A stretch of DNA of 64,000 bases, taken from positions 38,989-102,988 of the forward strand of contig CAZGJD010000005.1 in assembly GCA_964526385.1 (NCBI GenBank), given 5' to 3'. Of the stretch, positions 14,446 through 60,620 are shown piece by piece (the stretch's first letter is position 1; each line of letters starts with the position of its first letter). A program made the position numbers and the translations under genes. The stretch comes from an uncultured Candidatus Poseidoniales archaeon. GTDB lineage: Archaea; Thermoplasmatota; Poseidoniia; Poseidoniales; Poseidoniaceae. The notes under the pieces are model-generated. The model was not told the origin of the DNA, made no database searches, and was given only the letters and a program-made list of their open reading frames with translations.

Positions 14446-14520
14446 TGGCGCCCGTGCCGGGAATCGAACCCGGGTCGAGGCATCGACAACGCCTCATGAT
14501 AACCGCTACACCACACGGGC
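14446..14520 (-). tRNA. tRNA-Asp (GUC), 3' CCA encoded
   Basis: The reverse complement is GCCCGTGTGGTGTAGCGGTTATCATGAGGCGTTGTCGATGCCTCGACCCGGGTTCGATTCCCGGCACGGGCGCCA. It folds by hand with a 7-bp acceptor stem, anticodon loop TTGTCGA (GTC), T-arm CCGGG/TTCGATT/CCCGG, discriminator G and CCA. Confidence 0.9.
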
Positions 14521-18843: not shown

Positions 18844-18917
18844 CGGACACGGCAGGATTCGAACCCGCGATCTGTGGCTTAGGAGGCCACCGCCTTATCC
18901 AGCTGGGCCACGTGTCC
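18844..18917 (-). tRNA. tRNA-Arg (CCU), no encoded CCA
   Basis: The reverse complement is GGACACGTGGCCCAGCTGGATAAGGCGGTGGCCTCCTAAGCCACAGATCGCGGGTTCGAATCCTGCCGTGTCCG. It has a 7-bp acceptor stem, anticodon stem GTGGC/GCCAC with loop CTCCTAA (CCT), and a TTCGAAT T-loop. Confidence 0.9.
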
Positions 18918-54868: not shown

Positions 54869-56194
54869 ATGGATGAGCCAATTCAAATCCTAGCCGGCAC
54901 AGGAGGTGTGGCGTTAGGAGAGGCTCGAACAAATCACGAGGGGCGAAAAGCAATCCTGCTTTATCGAGAGGGAAATCCTGCGGAGTTAATTGGTTTGGCT
55001 CACACTATGGGGGTCGAAATTCAAGATGTAATTCATCAAAAAGGAAGAGATGATGTGAAGACATACTTCGGAAAAGGAAGGTTGCAAGACGTTTCTGATG
55101 AGTTAGCGGGTATGGTCGAAGGGCACGTATGGAATGGCGTTGACCTAGTTTTACTACACACAAATGCAACACCGAGACAGTTGGTTAGTGTTCATGAAAC
55201 CCTCCAAGTTGAGGTCTGGGATAGAGTGAGATTACTCCTTTCTCTTTTCATCTCACATGCTAATAGTGTTGAGGCAAGGACACAAGTACGAATTGCTCAA
55301 CTACAGGCAGATAGAACAGTTTTGAGAGAACTTGTAAACCAACAAACTACTGGCGAGAGAGCAGGATTTGGAGGAGGAGGCAGACAAGCGGTTCAGGGTG
55401 TCTTAACAAATGTTTCAAGAGAGTTAACTCAATTGCGCAAACGACAGTCAAAACACTCAACTGCAAGAAAGGAGAGGCGACGTCAGCGGATTAGAGGTGG
55501 AGCAAAAACTGTAGGTTTAGCAGGCTATACAAATGCCGGTAAATCGTCGTTATTCCTTAACCTGTCTGGCAAGGAAGTTCTTGTTGAGGATAAACTATTC
55601 TCCACTTTAGAAACCACGGTTGGTAGGATGGAAATGAGTCCACGAATATTACTTGCTGATACGATTGGATTCATTGATGAATTACCTTCGGATCTTCTCG
55701 ATGCTTTTCATGCTACATTAGATGAATCATTGCAGTGTGAGCTACTTCTTTTGTTGGTTGATTGTAGTGATGAAATTTCAGAATTTAAGAGAAAACTTTC
55801 GACATCCCGCAGAGAAATTTTTGATAGAATTAGTGACGACCCTCCAATGATTAGATTGGTCCTTACAAAATCTGATTCGGCAAATAATCTAGATGAAGCG
55901 TTAGAATTTGTTTCTTCTATAGGAATGAAAGACCCAATTATCATATCATCTCACTCGAACCAAGGCATTGACGAATTAAGGGATTGTATTTTGAAATCTC
56001 TTTACGGTGGGGAATCTACCGTCGAAGTACTTGAAGATGAGAATTCTAAAATTAGTAATGAATCTCTAATAAGCAAAATCTACGACTTAGGAATCGTAAC
56101 TAATAGAGACAAGAACCAACTAACACTTTGGTGTGATAAAAGTGAATTAAATCGTCTAATCTCCAAATCATCAGGACGCATTTCAATCAAGTAG
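54869..56194 (+). CDS. hflX: GTPase HflX
   Basis: The HflX N-domain contains GKGRLQDV and RVRLLLSLFISHANSVEARTQVRIAQLQ. The G1 motif is GYTNAGKSS, and DTIGF (G3) and TKSD (G4) are also present. Confidence 0.8.
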   Translation: MDEPIQILAGTGGVALGEARTNHEGRKAILLYREGNPAELIGLAHTMGVEIQDVIHQKGRDDVKTYFGKGRLQDVSDELAGMVEGHVWNGVDLVLLHTNATPRQLVSVHETLQVEVWDRVRLLLSLFISHANSVEARTQVRIAQLQADRTVLRELVNQQTTGERAGFGGGGRQAVQGVLTNVSRELTQLRKRQSKHSTARKERRRQRIRGGAKTVGLAGYTNAGKSSLFLNLSGKEVLVEDKLFSTLETTVGRMEMSPRILLADTIGFIDELPSDLLDAFHATLDESLQCELLLLLVDCSDEISEFKRKLSTSRREIFDRISDDPPMIRLVLTKSDSANNLDEALEFVSSIGMKDPIIISSHSNQGIDELRDCILKSLYGGESTVEVLEDENSKISNESLISKIYDLGIVTNRDKNQLTLWCDKSELNRLISKSSGRISIK

Positions 56195-56208
56195 TTTCAG
56201 CCCTTGGC

Positions 56209-57084
56209 ATGGGCATGGCCGAAATTCTGGAAGGGCTAGAACAACTTCCTGAAGAGGAGCCGGTTTTCCAATCTAGCGGGGCGGTTTTTCAGATAAAAAC
56301 CGATGACGGCCATCCTATGTTGAAACCTATTGCGATTTTTGTATTTGTCATTTGTATGCTTGGTTTTGCCAATGGTTTGGATTTCATTAATCCAAAAGCG
56401 GGTTTGGTGAGGCCTCATGAATGGATACATGGTTTATCCCAAGGCGCCCCTATCGACTCTGCTGAATTTGAAGGATTTGTGACATCAGACGGTCAGCCTG
56501 TTGAAAATGCAACAGTTACTCTTGAGGTAAAGTTAGATGTTGATTTGAAATCTCAGATGATAACCCAAACCAATGCAGAAGGTAAATTTGAATTTTCTAA
56601 TGCAACACCTGGTCTTACACAAATTATGATAGTAAAATGGAATGAAAACCAAGAGCATCATTCAGTTCTGCACAGGATAATTTTGAATCCACCCACTCCT
56701 CTTGAACCTGTAGGTTTTACCAGAATTGATTTTGAATTACCTTCGGATTCAGAATTTTCAGGATATGAATGTGTAGATATTTACGGTAACGATTCCTGTG
56801 TAAGAGAAATAGATTATCAACCTCAAGAAATGGAATTTCCATTAATCGATGAATCTGCCGCCGGACTTTACATAATGGTAGGCTGGGGCATGATTGGGCT
56901 TTCACTAATAGCATCAGGGTTTACATTCTACGGCTTGAAAAATAAATCAAGAGGAATGATACAGACCGCCTGCGTCTTGGTTTTCTTCACAGGGGGCCAT
57001 TACTACAGCGCATGCTTCTTTTCTGTAATGGCATTCGCACTAACTTTTGCAGTTCCTAAAAACACCGTTATTATTGATGCTTAG
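56209..57084 (+). CDS. Hypothetical membrane protein with a carboxypeptidase-regulatory-like (Ig-fold) domain
   Basis: GFVTSDGQPVENATVTLE....TNAEGKFEFSNATPG is typical of CarboxypepD_reg-like domains. There is 1 N-terminal TM helix and 3-4 C-terminal ones. Confidence 0.45.
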   Translation: MGMAEILEGLEQLPEEEPVFQSSGAVFQIKTDDGHPMLKPIAIFVFVICMLGFANGLDFINPKAGLVRPHEWIHGLSQGAPIDSAEFEGFVTSDGQPVENATVTLEVKLDVDLKSQMITQTNAEGKFEFSNATPGLTQIMIVKWNENQEHHSVLHRIILNPPTPLEPVGFTRIDFELPSDSEFSGYECVDIYGNDSCVREIDYQPQEMEFPLIDESAAGLYIMVGWGMIGLSLIASGFTFYGLKNKSRGMIQTACVLVFFTGGHYYSACFFSVMAFALTFAVPKNTVIIDA

Positions 57085-57123
57085 GGGCGACATACTATTC
57101 ACCTGAGCACTACACGGTCATCC

Positions 57124-58146
57124 ATGGACTTGACCCAATCGACTTGGATGATTCGAGAATTGGGTCAGCCTGTAAGCGCTTTGTACATTGGAGCCGATTA
57201 CTCAATCACAGCAGGTGGGTGGGATGGAAAGTTATCCCATTGGGATTCAGAAGGTAAACACCTCTGGTCAGTCGATTGCATGGATAGAATCGAATCAATA
57301 TTACAAGTCGACGCCAGTTTCGTAATTACGTCAGGCTTGCATATAGTATGTATCGAGAACGGTGAACAAAAATGGTCTCACGCATTAGAAGGGTCTGCAG
57401 ACTTAATCGCATTTCACTCTGGCAAAATAGTAGTAACATCCAGTGTATATGATATCGAGCATGGTGATTTTATGGAAGGAGCGATCTGGAAATTTTCTTT
57501 ATCAGGAGATCTCGAAACTATTGATAGGATTGATGAGAAGCCCTGGTTTTTATCTGCAAGAGAGGAATTAATCATTGGTTTAGGAAGGCCGAGATGCGGA
57601 ATATTAGTTGATGGTGAGCATGCAAGCCTCGGAATAGATTCACCAATAACGTGCGGGGTAGAACTCTCTGGAAATATATTTCTTGGACACGCAAACGGTG
57701 TGATAAGCGACGTATCGGGAAGGGAAATATCTAGGGATGAAACCGGAGTCGAATCCATAATTTCTCATCAAAATGGCATTGTTACGGCCCTTGAAAATGG
57801 AAAATTGGTCTTCCGGACATCAGATGAAAAAGTTGAATGGTCCGTAAAAAAAGACCAAATTACAACCCAAAGCTCTGCTTTCTCATATCATTGGGCAGGA
57901 AATTGGAACGGTATGGAAGGTTTAATCGAAGTTAGAGACAAATCTGGTGAATTAGTTGTTTCATCTTCAGTTTCAAGGCCAAGGGTTTCTACCAGCAGAA
58001 AAAATCGCGTTGGTTTTGGTTTAGAGGATGGTAAAATTATGGTATGGGAAAAGGAACTTTTTGAGCGAAGAAAAGGACAGGAATTTTCTGCACAAAATGA
58101 ACAAAAATCTGCTCTGGCAGAGAGGCTAAGATCATTGAGAAAATAG
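57124..58146 (+). CDS. Beta-propeller repeat protein (WD40/PQQ-like)
   Basis: Repeated blades of about 40 aa are present (GGWDGKLSHWDSEGKHLWS, ...GEQKWSH, ...). The C-terminal tail is basic. Confidence 0.5.
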   Translation: MDLTQSTWMIRELGQPVSALYIGADYSITAGGWDGKLSHWDSEGKHLWSVDCMDRIESILQVDASFVITSGLHIVCIENGEQKWSHALEGSADLIAFHSGKIVVTSSVYDIEHGDFMEGAIWKFSLSGDLETIDRIDEKPWFLSAREELIIGLGRPRCGILVDGEHASLGIDSPITCGVELSGNIFLGHANGVISDVSGREISRDETGVESIISHQNGIVTALENGKLVFRTSDEKVEWSVKKDQITTQSSAFSYHWAGNWNGMEGLIEVRDKSGELVVSSSVSRPRVSTSRKNRVGFGLEDGKIMVWEKELFERRKGQEFSAQNEQKSALAERLRSLRK

Positions 58147-58165
58147 TGTTATTTTTTTGCTATTT

Positions 58166-59001
58166 TCTCCACCGGACCCAGTGGAAAACCTCCCCGCAGA
58201 CCCCCATTTCGCATGGAAAAAGCCCGATTTTTCCGAAAGGTTTATTTGCCTCCTCCCCACAAGAGGAAATTGCCGCTCCCAAGGAGTGGTGGAGAAGGGC
58301 CTCAAAACCCGACTCTGGGACCCTGCCAACCGGCCTGCTCAAACCGAGCAAAGAGTTGGTCACAAACTTTGGAGACAAAGTGTGTGAGATGGGCTCGAAG
58401 ATCTGCCTCTCCGGAGACAGAAGTTCACCCATCCGTAGGAAGATTAGAAGCTTCGGCAGATAATCACACGAAATCGCAAGAAATCGTGACAGGGAGGGCA
58501 CGACCTCGGTCGTGTGGTACCAGGCCTACGCATTTCGCCGGGAGGAGTAGCAGTAACAGTTCTTCGGGACAACCTCAGCTACAACAAACGGCATCAGGCT
58601 ACGATACCTCGGTATCAAAGCCACTGAGAAACCGGACCAGGTAACTGCCTCGGCAGAAATTTGGAAACGGGCTCAACGGACGGAAACCGCGCCACCCCTT
58701 TTCGGAGAAGGTGGAAACGAACCTCCATCGCTGAAGACGAAAAGCCTCGTGCTTTGAATTGGAAGCAAAAGCGATTTGTCGACTTCGGTTGATGAAAAGC
58801 CAAACTCGGCTGTTGAGAAGAAGGTCTTCTTGCAAAAGAAGATCAACGAACCAATAAGCGTTCTTCGGAATGCTTTGAGGAGACGGCGACTCAGCAGTCA
58901 CCAGCGGAGGCTGGCAGGGGGGCGGATATCCCACCCGGATGAAACCCCCCTGCCAGTTCTCCCATCCTGCTATCACAGGTGAATTGGTGCCGGTTCGTTT
59001 C
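58166..59001 (+). ncRNA. Candidate large structured non-coding RNA(s), class unknown
   Basis: There is no credible ORF: five overlapping short ORFs give R/S/P/G-rich translations. G+C is elevated. At least 12 plus-strand hairpins are capped by UNCG, YUCG or GNRA loops. These are 58215-34, 58402-21 (UCCG), 58499-514 (CUCG), 58603-16 (CUCG), 58645-56 (CUCG), 58692-714, 58779-92 (UUCG), 58823-44 (GCAA) and 58856-75 (UUCG), plus a 12-bp perfect stem 58911-22/58945-56. Long-range helices are 58179-84/58621-26, 58727-32/58770-75 and 58626-35/58990-59001. Confidence 0.6.
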
Positions 59002-59015
59002 GTTTATGATATTTG

Positions 59016-59047
59016 AGGGTGATTTTACCCTGTCCGTCCCGTTTTTT
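59016..59047 (+). terminator. Hairpin plus T6 tract, putative terminator of the candidate ncRNA
   Basis: The AGGGT/ACCCT stem (59016-20/59027-31) is followed by gtccgtcccg and TTTTTT (59042-47). Confidence 0.4.
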
Positions 59048-59054
59048 ACACCTT

Positions 59055-60620
59055 TTAATTTGGACCAATCATATCTTCTGGTCTAACCCACTTATCGAAT
59101 TCTTCATTCGTAAGATATCCAAGACCGATGGCGGATTCCCGTAGAGTAGTACCTTCTTGGTGCGCCTTTTTCGCAATCTTTGCGGCTTTGTCGTACCCAA
59201 TGTGATTGTTCAAAGCGGTAACTAACATTAGGGAGTTCTCAAGATGATCTTCTATCATGCCTAAATTTGGCTGGATTCCAATTACGCATTTTTCGGTGAA
59301 TGACCTCATAGAAGCAGATAAAATTTTACAACTATGCAAGAAATTATGAATCATCATAGGTTTGAACACGTTCAATTCAAAGTTTCCTTGACTTCCTCCA
59401 ATAGTAATAGCAGTATGATTTCCTATTACTTGGCAGCAAACCATTGTCATAGCTTCAGACTGCGTTGGGTTCACCTTTCCTGGCATAATCGAAGATCCAG
59501 GCTCATTTTCTGGTAATGACAATTCACCCAGTCCACACCTCGGTCCCGAACCGAGCCATCGAACATCATTTGCAATTTTCATCAAGGATGCGGCAAGTGT
59601 ATTGAGTGCGCCACTGGCAGCAACTATTGCATCGTGTGCCGCAAGTTGGGCGAATTTATTTGGAGCTGAAACGAAGGGAAGATTTGTTTTGAGGGCGATC
59701 GCTGAAGCGACCCTATTTGCAAACTCAGGATGAGTGTTTAACCCGGTGCCAACTGCAGTCCCACCCAATGCGAGTTCGTATAAATCCTCCAAGGCGAATT
59801 CAATTCTTTTGATATCAGAGTCTAACTGAGAAACCCATCCGCTTGCTTCTTGACCAAGAGTTAGAGGGACTGCATCCATCAAATGAGTTCGGCCAATTTT
59901 TACTATTTCGCCCCAGTCCTCTGATTTCTGTTTTAATGTATCTCTTAGGATTTTTAGATTTGGTAGAACTTCGTGGACAATTGATTCAGTAGCTGAAATG
60001 TGCATCGCAGTGGGAAAAGTGTCGTTTGATGATTGAGCTCTATTTACGTGGTCATTAGGATGGATGGGGTCTTTCGATCCTAGTACCCCACCAGCCATTT
60101 CAATTGCACGATTTGCAATGACCTCATTAGTATTCATGTTGGATTGAGTTCCCGAACCAGTTTGCCAAACCCTTAGAGGAAAATGCGCATCCAATTTTCC
60201 GTTGATAACTTCTTCAGCAGCAGCGATTATGCGCTTTGATATCTTTTTATCCAGTTGACCGAGGTCTGAATTAACTTTAGCAGCAGCTTGTTTTAGAATA
60301 CCGAATGCGCGAATGACGCGCCTGGGCATTTTGTCATCTCCAATATCGAAGTTAATCAGAGACCTTGCAGTTTGACAACCGTAGTACATATCGGCAGGGA
60401 CTTCCAACTCTCCCATGGTATCAGCTTCCATCCTGATGCCTTCTGGCCTTATTTTTGAGCCATCAGTATCCGCCAACCTTTTGTTTACGGCTTCTACAAT
60501 CCACTGGCTTCTGTTTTCAGCAATGCTCTCTATTTCCTCCATTTTTTCTAGTAATTCTGAAGGGAATGAGACGCTAACGATTCGCGCATCATGTGTTCTT
60601 GGTCTGCCCTTTGTTGGCAT
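59055..60620 (-). CDS. fumC: Class II fumarate hydratase with an N-terminal ribbon-helix-helix (CopG-like) extension
   Basis: [16 protein letters not shown] is the class II fumarase/aspartase signature. [26 protein letters not shown] matches the canonical FumC N-terminus, which here begins at about residue 62. Residues 12-50 ([39 protein letters not shown]) look like an RHH DNA-binding domain. Confidence 0.85.

Follow-up and report, generated by a model that had tools for sequence, protein, structure and literature searches.

Genes and features at the locus

We examined the interval between a beta-propeller gene and a converging fumarase C gene (fumC) in a 64,000-nt stretch of contig CAZGJD010000005.1 from an uncultured Candidatus Poseidoniales archaeon; this whole stretch is called the window. 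The interval of 885 nt (58166–59050) lies between the stop codon of the propeller gene and the stop codon of the convergent fumC. We find that it very probably contains a single-copy gene for a highly structured non-coding RNA (ncRNA) of ∼0.72–0.78 kb, independently transcribed on the plus strand and inherited vertically in a subset of the Poseidoniaceae (Marine Group IIa, MGIIa). An earlier interpretation of this DNA, made from the letters alone (the sequence-only reading), had proposed a large structured ncRNA of unknown class at this position, and this proposal is borne out by what we describe below: the region is non-coding, its helices covary and no family in Rfam 15 matches it. The main features of the locus are the following.

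57124–58146, plus strand: beta-propeller gene, 340 aa
58147–58159, plus strand: T-rich tract TGTTATTTTTTTG, directly after the propeller stop codon
58272–59047, plus strand: predicted transcript, ∼0.72–0.78 kb, based on promoter geometry, covarying helices (58272–58979) and a T-run
59055–60620, minus strand: fumarase C gene, converging on the element, with its stop at 59055

The structure and tetraloop signal of this 0.9-kb gap is well beyond chance. The plus strand carries CTTCGG at 58451, 58562, 58783 and 58863, CCTCGG at 58504, 58607 and 58648, CTCCGG at 58409, GCAA loops at 58476 and 58832, and a perfect 12-bp stem (58911–22/58945–56) that becomes a 17-bp stem if one bulge is allowed (58906–22/58945–62). 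The tetraloops, GCAA loops and 12-bp stem had been listed in the sequence-only reading, and all of their coordinates were correct when checked again. The CTTCGG motif occurs 12 times in the whole window, with 4 of these inside the 885-nt stretch, where ∼0.18 would be expected from its own base composition, and the reverse complement, CCGAAG, does not occur in the region. Similarly, the G+C content of 52–53% exceeds that of the flanks (∼39–45%), as had also been pointed out. The minimum free energy of the plus strand is −340.8 kcal/mol, compared to −286 ± 7.7 in dinucleotide shuffles (z = −7.1), while the minus strand has a z of −5.2 in the same kind of test.

Homologues and their distribution

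The element has homologues in 31 species-level Poseidoniales genomes and on 87 metagenome contigs. Named homologues of the propeller protein come from marine metagenome-assembled genomes (MAGs) labelled Poseidoniaceae, Poseidoniales, Thermoplasmatota or ‘Euryarchaeota archaeon’, in keeping with the Marine Group II/Poseidoniales source that the sequence-only reading had assumed. Contigs on which the propeller protein is 65, 61, 55, 49 and 44% identical to that of the window have the same gene order, in which the propeller gene is followed by a gap of 0.6–1.0 kb. Aligned end to end with the window, the gap sequences are 82, 80, 70 and 59% identical to it, and the 3′ part of the gap is nearly invariant even where the identity of the propeller protein drops to 49%.

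A signature from this 3′ part, GCGGAGGC-N35–65-TCTCCCATCCTGC, was used to scan viral contigs, one genome per GTDB species, and metagenomes. The viral contigs yielded zero matches, and phage genomes gave no match to the element. Among the GTDB species genomes there were 41 signature matches, 31 of which are in Poseidoniales-type MAGs and fit the full-length profile; the remaining 10 are in scattered bacteria or Methanobrevibacter and do not fit it (we estimated ∼8 chance matches). The metagenomes yielded 105 matches, of which 87 are true. A covariance model of the 3′ domain separates the true copies (79–110 bits) from chance loci (≤19 bits). Over 100 natural variants make up the comparative set, which includes 51 non-redundant sequences, and the homologues, with short flanks, are 478–884 nt long.

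The position of the element is strictly maintained. Every locus with enough flank has it immediately 3′ of the propeller gene and in the same orientation. Where the downstream flank is present, a convergent fumarase C gene comes next, except in locus L014, which has other genes downstream. There is a single copy in the 64-kb window. The element is absent from three more distant loci (L015–L017, propeller 39–43% identical), where no copy lies at the syntenic site or elsewhere in the 13 kb covered; in L017 the propeller gene directly adjoins that for fumarase. NCBI records assign the propeller orthologues of two of these RNA-less types to the Poseidoniaceae as well. The RNA is therefore patchily distributed in MGIIa, which implies either one gain or repeated losses within this group.

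The intervals after the propeller gene in the RNA-less loci are short (7080–7082 in L017, 7078–7094 in L015 and 7054–7102 in L016).

Compensatory changes maintain the helices of a plus-strand RNA

More than 20 helices in the element are maintained by compensatory substitutions. We used two alignments, one of 30 sequences (A1, made with MAFFT and including compact forms, with a consensus structure from RNAalifold) and a second of 46 sequences of long forms. The A1 structure has 115 pairs in 21 helices, and in 62 of these pairs at least one sequence is changed on both sides with pairing kept. Standard pairs make up 96.4% of the A1 cells, compared to 36.6–46.3% when the 3′ partners are slid by 1–3 columns. 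Likewise, the 62 pairs with double changes compare to 15–31 in the slid controls and to 29.9 ± 3.0 in column-shuffled controls (0 of 500 shuffles reach 62), the cells with double changes number 302 compared to 29–73 in the controls, and the covariation score is 0.299 compared to 0.05–0.09. The stems thus are conserved among homologues, and their changes are compensatory, above both the slid and the shuffled controls. The 46-sequence alignment has ∼45 helices, most with three or four compensated pair types at several positions. The covarying helices include four that close domains (58388–91/58430–33, 58434–38/58526–30, 58547–53/58576–82 and 58808–20/58887–99).

The plus strand is the strand under selection, as the sequence-only reading had argued from the tetraloops of the window. 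The plus strands of the 51 non-redundant homologues contain 418 copies of C(UUCG)G (8.2 per RNA), and their minus strands contain none. Paired columns of A1 contain 322 G·U cells compared to 40 A·C cells. In addition, the covariance model of the 3′ domain scores 109.9 bits on the plus strand of the window and 20 bits on the minus strand (58900–58983).

Several proposed pairings were set aside. RNAalifold paired 58355–59 with 58901–05 in the 46-sequence set; this pairing involves invariant bases only, and the local P3 helix (see below) is compensatory in L021 and L033. A small hairpin, CCAGC-GGAG-GCUGG, underlies a weak match to HIV-1 SL3, and swaps from U-A to A-U and from G-C to A-U favour the 17-bp stem instead. 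An all-against-all covariation scan for pseudoknots returned 844 candidates that were swamped by phylogenetic correlation, and a stricter stack filter added nothing.

The region is non-coding

The longest open frames vary in strand, frame and position across the 51 homologues. We found no 3-nt periodicity of substitution in this set, in which column entropy by position modulo 3 is 0.623, 0.623 and 0.636. Pairwise indel lengths modulo 3 are distributed as 648 (remainder 1), 408 (remainder 2) and 124 (remainder 0), such that 1056 of 1180 (89%) are not multiples of three. None of the open reading frames (ORFs) of the interval in the window matches a Pfam family, and they are short, with overlaps between several frames. 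Thus, the statement in the sequence-only reading that there is no credible coding sequence here is upheld by the homologues.

Public gene calls for the gap range, among close relatives, from none at all to ORFs that differ in strand and size. These inconsistent ‘hypothetical protein’ calls include 58213–58644 (plus strand, 143 aa) and 58599–58976 (minus strand, 125 aa), as well as 1829–2278 in L007 (149 aa), 7106–7861 in L008 (251 aa) and 7264–7902 in L009 (212 aa), with calls on either strand. The ‘hypothetical proteins’ called across the RNA are spurious database entries.

A predicted promoter and the ends of the transcript

Upstream of the covarying structure lie three further features.

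58166–58188: conserved box A, TCTCCACCGGA CCCAGTGGAAAA, which in most homologues is TCCAGTGGA plus CAGTGGAAA; defined by sequence conservation
58206–58221: conserved box B, ATTTCGCATGGAAAAA, which in most homologues is TTTCC-N3-GGAAA; defined by sequence conservation
58233–58247, plus strand: predicted archaeal promoter of the RNA, composed of a B recognition element (BRE)-like CCGAAAGG and a TATA-like TTTATTT (58241–58247)

The RNA most likely starts at ∼G58272, the first base of hairpin P1, because of the fixed spacing of the TATA-like box, which matches that of a tRNA promoter. In 42 of the 51 homologues, the T of TGCCGC (in the invariant TGCCGCUCC) follows the first T of the TATA-like box at a distance of exactly 30 nt, and the other 9 have TTTATGG or TTTTTAG variants at the corresponding upstream position. 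The geometry is the same at the tRNA gene at 14449–14520 in the window, where TTAAATA lies 31 nt ahead of the mature 5′ end. The interval reported in the sequence-only reading (58166–59050) therefore holds as RNA body from ∼58272 onward; its first ∼105 nt (58166–58271) are promoter and upstream DNA.

The two boxes appear to act at the level of DNA. Their motifs are TCC-N3-GGA/(C)AGTGGAAA and TTTCC-N3-GGAAA. We found no RNA structure in the upstream 120 nt (alifold −3.0 kcal/mol, with a covariation term of −0.1), and box B is not an RNA helix, because changes in one arm are not compensated in the other. Boxes A and B may thus be regulatory sites in the DNA to which transcription factors would bind; if so, expression of the RNA would be regulated. 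Farther upstream, the part TGTTATTTT of the T-rich tract after the propeller stop codon is conserved in 30 of 30 homologues. Archaeal termination requires only oligo-T, and from the known behaviour of archaeal RNA polymerase at such tracts this is probably the terminator of the propeller mRNA.

The 3′ end is less sharply defined. The supported structure ends at 58979, sequence conservation fades by ∼59012, and the T-run of most homologues is at 59042–59047. The end may thus lie anywhere between ∼58985 and this T6, with a probable oligo-T terminator near 59045. Regarding the hairpin plus T6 that had been noted at 59016–59047, the T-run is present in most aligned homologues, and the two together do not form the pattern of an intrinsic terminator, because 8 nt separate the stem from the T-run.

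Architecture of the predicted RNA

The predicted RNA is composed of the following elements, in 5′ to 3′ order.

58272–58290, plus strand: P1, 5′-terminal hairpin GCCGCUCC-loop-GGAGUGGU, with two fixed G·U pairs
58291–58316, plus strand: P2 hairpin, with both-side changes in 5 of 8 pairs (A1) and in 7 of 10 (46-sequence set)
58324–58362, plus strand: P3 (UGCCAACC/GGUUGGCA), enclosing P3a (GCUC-AAACC-GAGC, with a conserved pentaloop)
58367–58380, plus strand: P4 hairpin, with a conserved GNRA tetraloop (GAGA, 58372–75)
58388–58433, plus strand: P5 domain, with closing helix 58388–91/58430–33 (4 of 4 closing pairs covary) and hairpin 58395–405/58418–28 with a C(UCCG)G loop
58434–58530, plus strand: P6, three-hairpin domain closed by 58434–38/58526–30
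58537–58592, plus strand: P7 domain, with 58537–40/58589–92, 58547–53/58576–82 and apical 58559–62/58567–70 (A1 helices 11 and 12; 46-sequence set)
58597–58807, plus strand: fast-evolving central region of hairpins capped by UUCG or CUCG, in which local helices covary
58808–58899, plus strand: P10 domain, with closing helix 58808–20/58887–99 and hairpins 58823–44 (conserved GNRA, GCAA or GAAA) and 58858–73 (UUCG)
58906–58962, plus strand: P11, core of the 3′ domain, a 17-bp stem with one bulged U and an internal loop CGGA/AAA
58928–31/58937–40, plus strand: apical 4-bp hairpin of P11, with loop CACCC and an A-U to U-A swap
58966–58979, plus strand: P12, terminal hairpin CCUG-CUAUCA-CAGG, preceded by an invariant single-stranded CCCAU; found in compact forms too
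58980–59047, plus strand: 3′ tail, with moderate conservation to ∼59012, a window-specific hairpin at ∼59016–59033 and T6 at 59042–59047

The core of the RNA consists of its two ends, P1–P2 plus a near-invariant 3′ domain of ∼85 nt (P11–P12), and the middle gains, loses and replaces hairpins. Mean identity among six lineages found by synteny is 0.87 for the 3′ domain, 0.67 for P1–P2 and 0.32 for the central region. Indeed, the compact homologues, of 478 nt (L014 type) and ∼640 nt (L021 type), retain P1, P2, the 3′ domain with the 17-bp stem and the final CCUG...CAGG hairpin. The middles of these compact forms hold other UUCG-capped hairpins; they are 48–52% identical to one another and to that of L012, the shortest long form, and are effectively unalignable.

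At the 5′ end, P1 has 8 bp, 5 of which never vary and 3 of which vary on one side only among the 30 sequences that include the compact forms, and it is 100% paired in the 46-sequence set. At the 3′ end, 12 of the 17 pairs of the P11 stem are constant and another 3 covary, changing from G-C to A-U in 11 sequences, from U-A to A-U in 2 and from C-G to U-A in 2. The high proportion of unvarying pairs in this stem implies constraints beyond pairing. P12 is invariant in sequence and hence silent on covariation either way.

Between these ends, covariation is extensive. P3 and P3a (helices 4 and 5) have A-U to G-C and C-G to U-A swaps in L021 and L033. All 5 pairs of P4 have compensatory types (CG/UA/AU/GC) in the 46-sequence set, as do 4 of 5 in A1. 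The three hairpins of P6, at 58441–66 (UUCG), 58467–87 (GCAA) and 58499–515 (CUCG), have 5–8 covarying pairs each; a conserved purine tract, ACAGGGAGGGC, lies at 58488–98, and GGGAGGGC is nearly invariant. The apical CUUCGG loop of P7 is nearly invariant in all forms, with loop bases T298, T299 and G302 invariant. In the P10 domain, helices 16–18 have 5, 6 and 5 pairs changed on both sides in A1. The conserved GNRA loops of P4 (58372–75) and P10 (58832–35) suggest tertiary contacts.

Variation in the middle takes the form of whole hairpins. One at ∼58597–58620 is present in the clade of the window and missing in many other lineages, and most lineages carry two extra hairpin insertions that the window does not have (A1 columns ∼520–700; L010, L019 and L028–L058). 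This presence and absence of hairpins resembles that of expansion segments in ribosomal RNA (rRNA) or RNase P RNA.

The division into constant ends and a changeable middle bears on the most credible rival to a single long functional RNA, which is that the long transcript is a precursor. The functional product would then be an RNA of ∼90–110 nt from the 3′ end (P11–P12), possibly accompanied by another small RNA derived from the 5′ hairpins, and the middle would be spacer. The conservation of the 3′ domain and of P1 far above that of the rest is consistent with such a precursor, as is a middle that cannot be aligned between compact and long forms. However, the hairpins of the middle are individually kept by many compensatory changes and by their UUCG and GNRA caps, which would not be expected of a discarded spacer, and we identified no processing motif. 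We therefore regard a precursor as unlikely.

Relation to the neighbouring genes

The constant association with the propeller gene raises a second rival, in which the element is a giant structured 3′ untranslated region (UTR) that acts in cis on the propeller mRNA and controls its stability or termination. In support of this, the element always follows the propeller gene directly and in the same orientation, and it stays with that gene in L014 despite a different downstream neighbour. Nevertheless, a conserved oligo-T tract follows the propeller stop codon, the BRE/TATA elements are fixed at 30 nt from P1, and the 105 nt in between are without RNA structure. Moreover, the propeller orthologues of other lineages lack the element and are otherwise alike. 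We thus consider a 3′ UTR very unlikely, and a separate gene for a structured RNA remains the preferred explanation.

The genes around the element in the window encode an HflX-type GTPase, a CarboxypepD_reg-like protein, the beta-propeller, fumarase C, sulfotransferases and an asparaginase. The first three of these form a conserved gene string at 54869–58146, made up of the HflX-type GTPase (GTP-bdg_N + MMR_HSR1), the CarboxypepD_reg-like protein (291 aa in the window) and the 340-aa beta-propeller. The string is present across L001–L017, with or without the RNA, and L016 is without a call for the GTPase gene. The propeller protein matches no Pfam family at E ≤ 0.01 and has a conserved C-terminal …KSALAxKLRSLRK tail.

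The fumC product is 521 aa here, with the Lyase_1 domain beginning at residue 70 and an N-terminal extension of ∼69 aa (60414–60620, minus strand). By eye, this extension resembles a ribbon-helix-helix DNA-binding motif, with no Pfam match at E ≤ 0.01; it is alignable in some homologues, and in others the gene is called at 463–464 aa.

Comparison with known RNAs

All 4227 models of Rfam 15 were searched, with the gathering score as the cut-off for the whole window and E ≤ 10 as the cut-off for 58000–59200 and for the compact homologue L014 (7000–7700). No family matched the element or its compact form; the matches were at chance level only, the best being HIV-1 SL3 with 17.9 bits and E = 0.31. 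The sole gathering-score matches in the 64-kb window are two tRNA genes (14449–14520 and 18844–18917, minus strand).

The archaeal RNase P model (RNaseP_arch, RF00373) gave no match at the gathering score in the window or at E ≤ 10 in the region and L014, and the archaeal signal recognition particle (SRP) RNA model (Archaea_SRP, RF01857) gave no match at E ≤ 10 in the region and L014. A search with ≤2 mismatches for the conserved region I (CR-I)/P4 core of RNase P (GAGGAAAGUCC-like) yielded 19 matches in the window compared to 18.8 expected, with none inside the RNA body; one CR-I-like match with 2 mismatches straddles the RNA start (58263–73). The group II intron models (domain V/VI, D1–D4) did not match at E ≤ 10, and neither did those for OLE, GOLLD, ROOL, HEARO/omega-RNA and raiA. 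ARAGORN found 0 tRNA or tmRNA genes in 58100–59100, and a search for a CRISPR or repeat array returned only two short 2-copy chance families and one 2.5-copy match of 10 nt, which is a hairpin. By eye only, the 3′ domain was also compared with H/ACA, C/D-box and K-turn RNAs, and these readings were rejected: there is no pseudouridylation pocket and no C/D box pair, and the G·A positions are unlike those of a standard K-turn.

MG-II archaea express canonical RNase P RNA (292–306 nt) and SRP RNA (305–315 nt, RF01857), which are recognised by Rfam, as reported from a Red Sea metatranscriptome (PMC5069720). The same study describes the one other unexplained structured ncRNA reported from Marine Group II, Tan1 (Thalassoarchaea ncRNA 1), which is highly expressed in situ and has BLASTN homologues reported only in Ca. 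Thalassoarchaea (MGIIb) (PMC5069720). At 229 nt and reported only from MGIIb, Tan1 is set apart from our element by its published description. The two are probably unrelated, because a shared near-invariant 3′ domain should have produced BLASTN matches in MGIIa genomes.

The element is similar in kind to several large bacterial and phage RNAs, of which OLE, GOLLD and ROOL are its nearest analogues. Like OLE, it is several hundred nucleotides long, non-coding, single-copy and confined to one lineage, it has many covarying helices, and it was found as a conserved GC-rich, structured region whose sequence offered no hint of function. OLE, however, shows no homology to it at Rfam E ≤ 10, is bacterial (Firmicutes) and lies in an operon with the genes for its partner proteins, whereas this element is archaeal, has its own predicted promoter and has no evident partner gene adjoining it. 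GOLLD and ROOL are likewise ornate RNAs of ∼0.6–0.8 kb whose biochemical function is unknown, rich in hairpins and with conserved loops for tertiary contacts; they have reportedly been found in recent work to form RNA-only multimeric assemblies, and they are often in phages or prophages near tRNA genes. In contrast, the element matches neither model, is chromosomal, strictly syntenic and away from tRNAs, and is absent from the viral and phage collections searched. The neighbourhoods typical of OLE (oap), of HEARO/omega-RNA (IscB/IsrB/TnpB) and of GOLLD/ROOL (phage, tRNA) were not seen around it.

With archaeal RNase P and SRP RNAs, the element shares a structured, conserved core with lineage-specific expansion hairpins, as well as BRE/TATA promoters; those RNAs are ∼300 nt and universal, whereas the element is ∼750 nt and patchy within one family. 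These likenesses of a stable housekeeping RNA, in size class, core-plus-expansion architecture and strong promoter, would fit a highly divergent, expanded RNase P or SRP RNA. We nevertheless consider this highly improbable, given that no Rfam model matches at E ≤ 10 even in the compact form, that no CR-I-like core exceeds chance, that separate canonical RNase P (∼300 nt) and SRP (∼310 nt) RNAs are present in MG-II (PMC5069720), and that the element is missing at the locus in some Poseidoniaceae lineages.

Equally improbable, and disfavoured, is an element that acts as DNA (an origin, a recombination site or a protein-binding array) or the decaying RNA of a mobile element, such as an ORF-less group II intron or an omega-RNA. 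The conserved upstream DNA boxes and the invariant stem sequences of the 3′ domain would be consistent with such an element, but the excess of G·U over A·C, the asymmetry of UUCG and the compensatory changes are signatures of RNA. Mobility of the group II type was not seen: the element is single-copy in 64 kb, occupies the same position in all flanked loci and has no conserved ORF. It is, further, strictly syntenic and without repeats, it matches no intron or omega-RNA family and no phage or viral sequence, and no transposase, reverse transcriptase or nuclease gene is nearby. Finally, although gene callers place ORFs of 125–251 aa in the gap, one or more proteins or small peptides, partly captured by those calls, are refuted for long ORFs and can otherwise be given almost no credence, since the calls are inconsistent between close relatives, substitution has no 3-nt periodicity and is compensatory in the RNA, 89% of indels have lengths not divisible by 3, and no Pfam family is matched.

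On these sequence comparisons, then, the element is detectably related to no described RNA family and is a new RNA family. Its conserved structured span of ∼710 nt (58272–58979) is non-coding and has helices that covary above controls, which are the properties of a large ornate ncRNA. In the full-text literature and in Rfam, we found no description of a large MGIIa RNA or of a lineage-specific archaeal RNA of such size and complexity.

A possible mode of action

The course of events that we propose begins with transcription from the element's own BRE/TATA promoter, which would start at ∼G58272 and end at the oligo-T near 59045 and would probably be regulated, as the conserved DNA boxes upstream of the promoter suggest. 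The RNA might then act in trans as the scaffold of a ribonucleoprotein (RNP). A protein or nucleic-acid partner would recognise the invariant 5′ hairpin, with its two fixed G·U pairs, and the 3′ domain; the hairpin-rich middle, which varies, would serve as a rigid, nuclease-resistant body. OLE functions as an RNP scaffold, and by analogy we tentatively suggest that the element follows the logic of OLE, RNase P or 7SK-type RNAs and is not a riboswitch or an antisense regulator. The adjacent beta-propeller was considered as the RNA partner and rejected, as the protein is acidic and its orthologues are alike with or without the RNA. A more speculative idea, to which we attach considerable doubt, is that the element is the first ‘ornate large RNA’ of the Archaea with a biochemistry of its own in an MGIIa clade, and maybe a ribozyme or a self-assembling RNA-only or RNP machine like those reported lately for GOLLD, ROOL and OLE, in which case the invariant 5′ hairpin and 3′ domain would be its active or binding centre.

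Several points weigh against our interpretation. We infer the transcription, the ends and the abundance of the RNA all from sequence, and contig ends in Joint Genome Institute (JGI) metagenome assemblies, taken as a proxy for transcript ends, fall at random positions and carry no transcript signal. The column-shuffled control for covariation ignores phylogeny, which the slid-partner control does not, and the alignments are based on MAFFT. Support for the fold is limited to the hairpins and the four domain-closing helices, and no other pairing at long range emerged. Part of the invariance of the 3′ domain in the scan-derived sequences is imposed by the search pattern; the six lineages found by synteny serve as an unbiased check. 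The absence of the element from some lineages labelled Poseidoniaceae means that it is not essential to the family and makes a housekeeping role unlikely. With respect to mechanism, the RNP scaffold is an analogy and not a result, and no partner protein was identified, the adjoining propeller not being supported as one.

Significance

Large RNAs with complex conserved folds are rare, and the solved examples, which include ribosomal RNA, RNase P, group I and group II introns, tmRNA, OLE and the GOLLD/ROOL cages, have nearly all turned out to be fundamental or unexpected. The inconsistent ‘hypothetical protein’ calls at this locus pollute protein databases. The compact forms of 478 nt point to a minimal core, and the comparative data set makes the element directly testable with no culture required. 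Marine Group II archaea are a dominant part of the ocean plankton, and in surface waters MGIIa rank with the most abundant planktonic archaea. The element that a subset of MGIIa carries may represent a new class of large functional RNA, for which candidates in archaea are rare.

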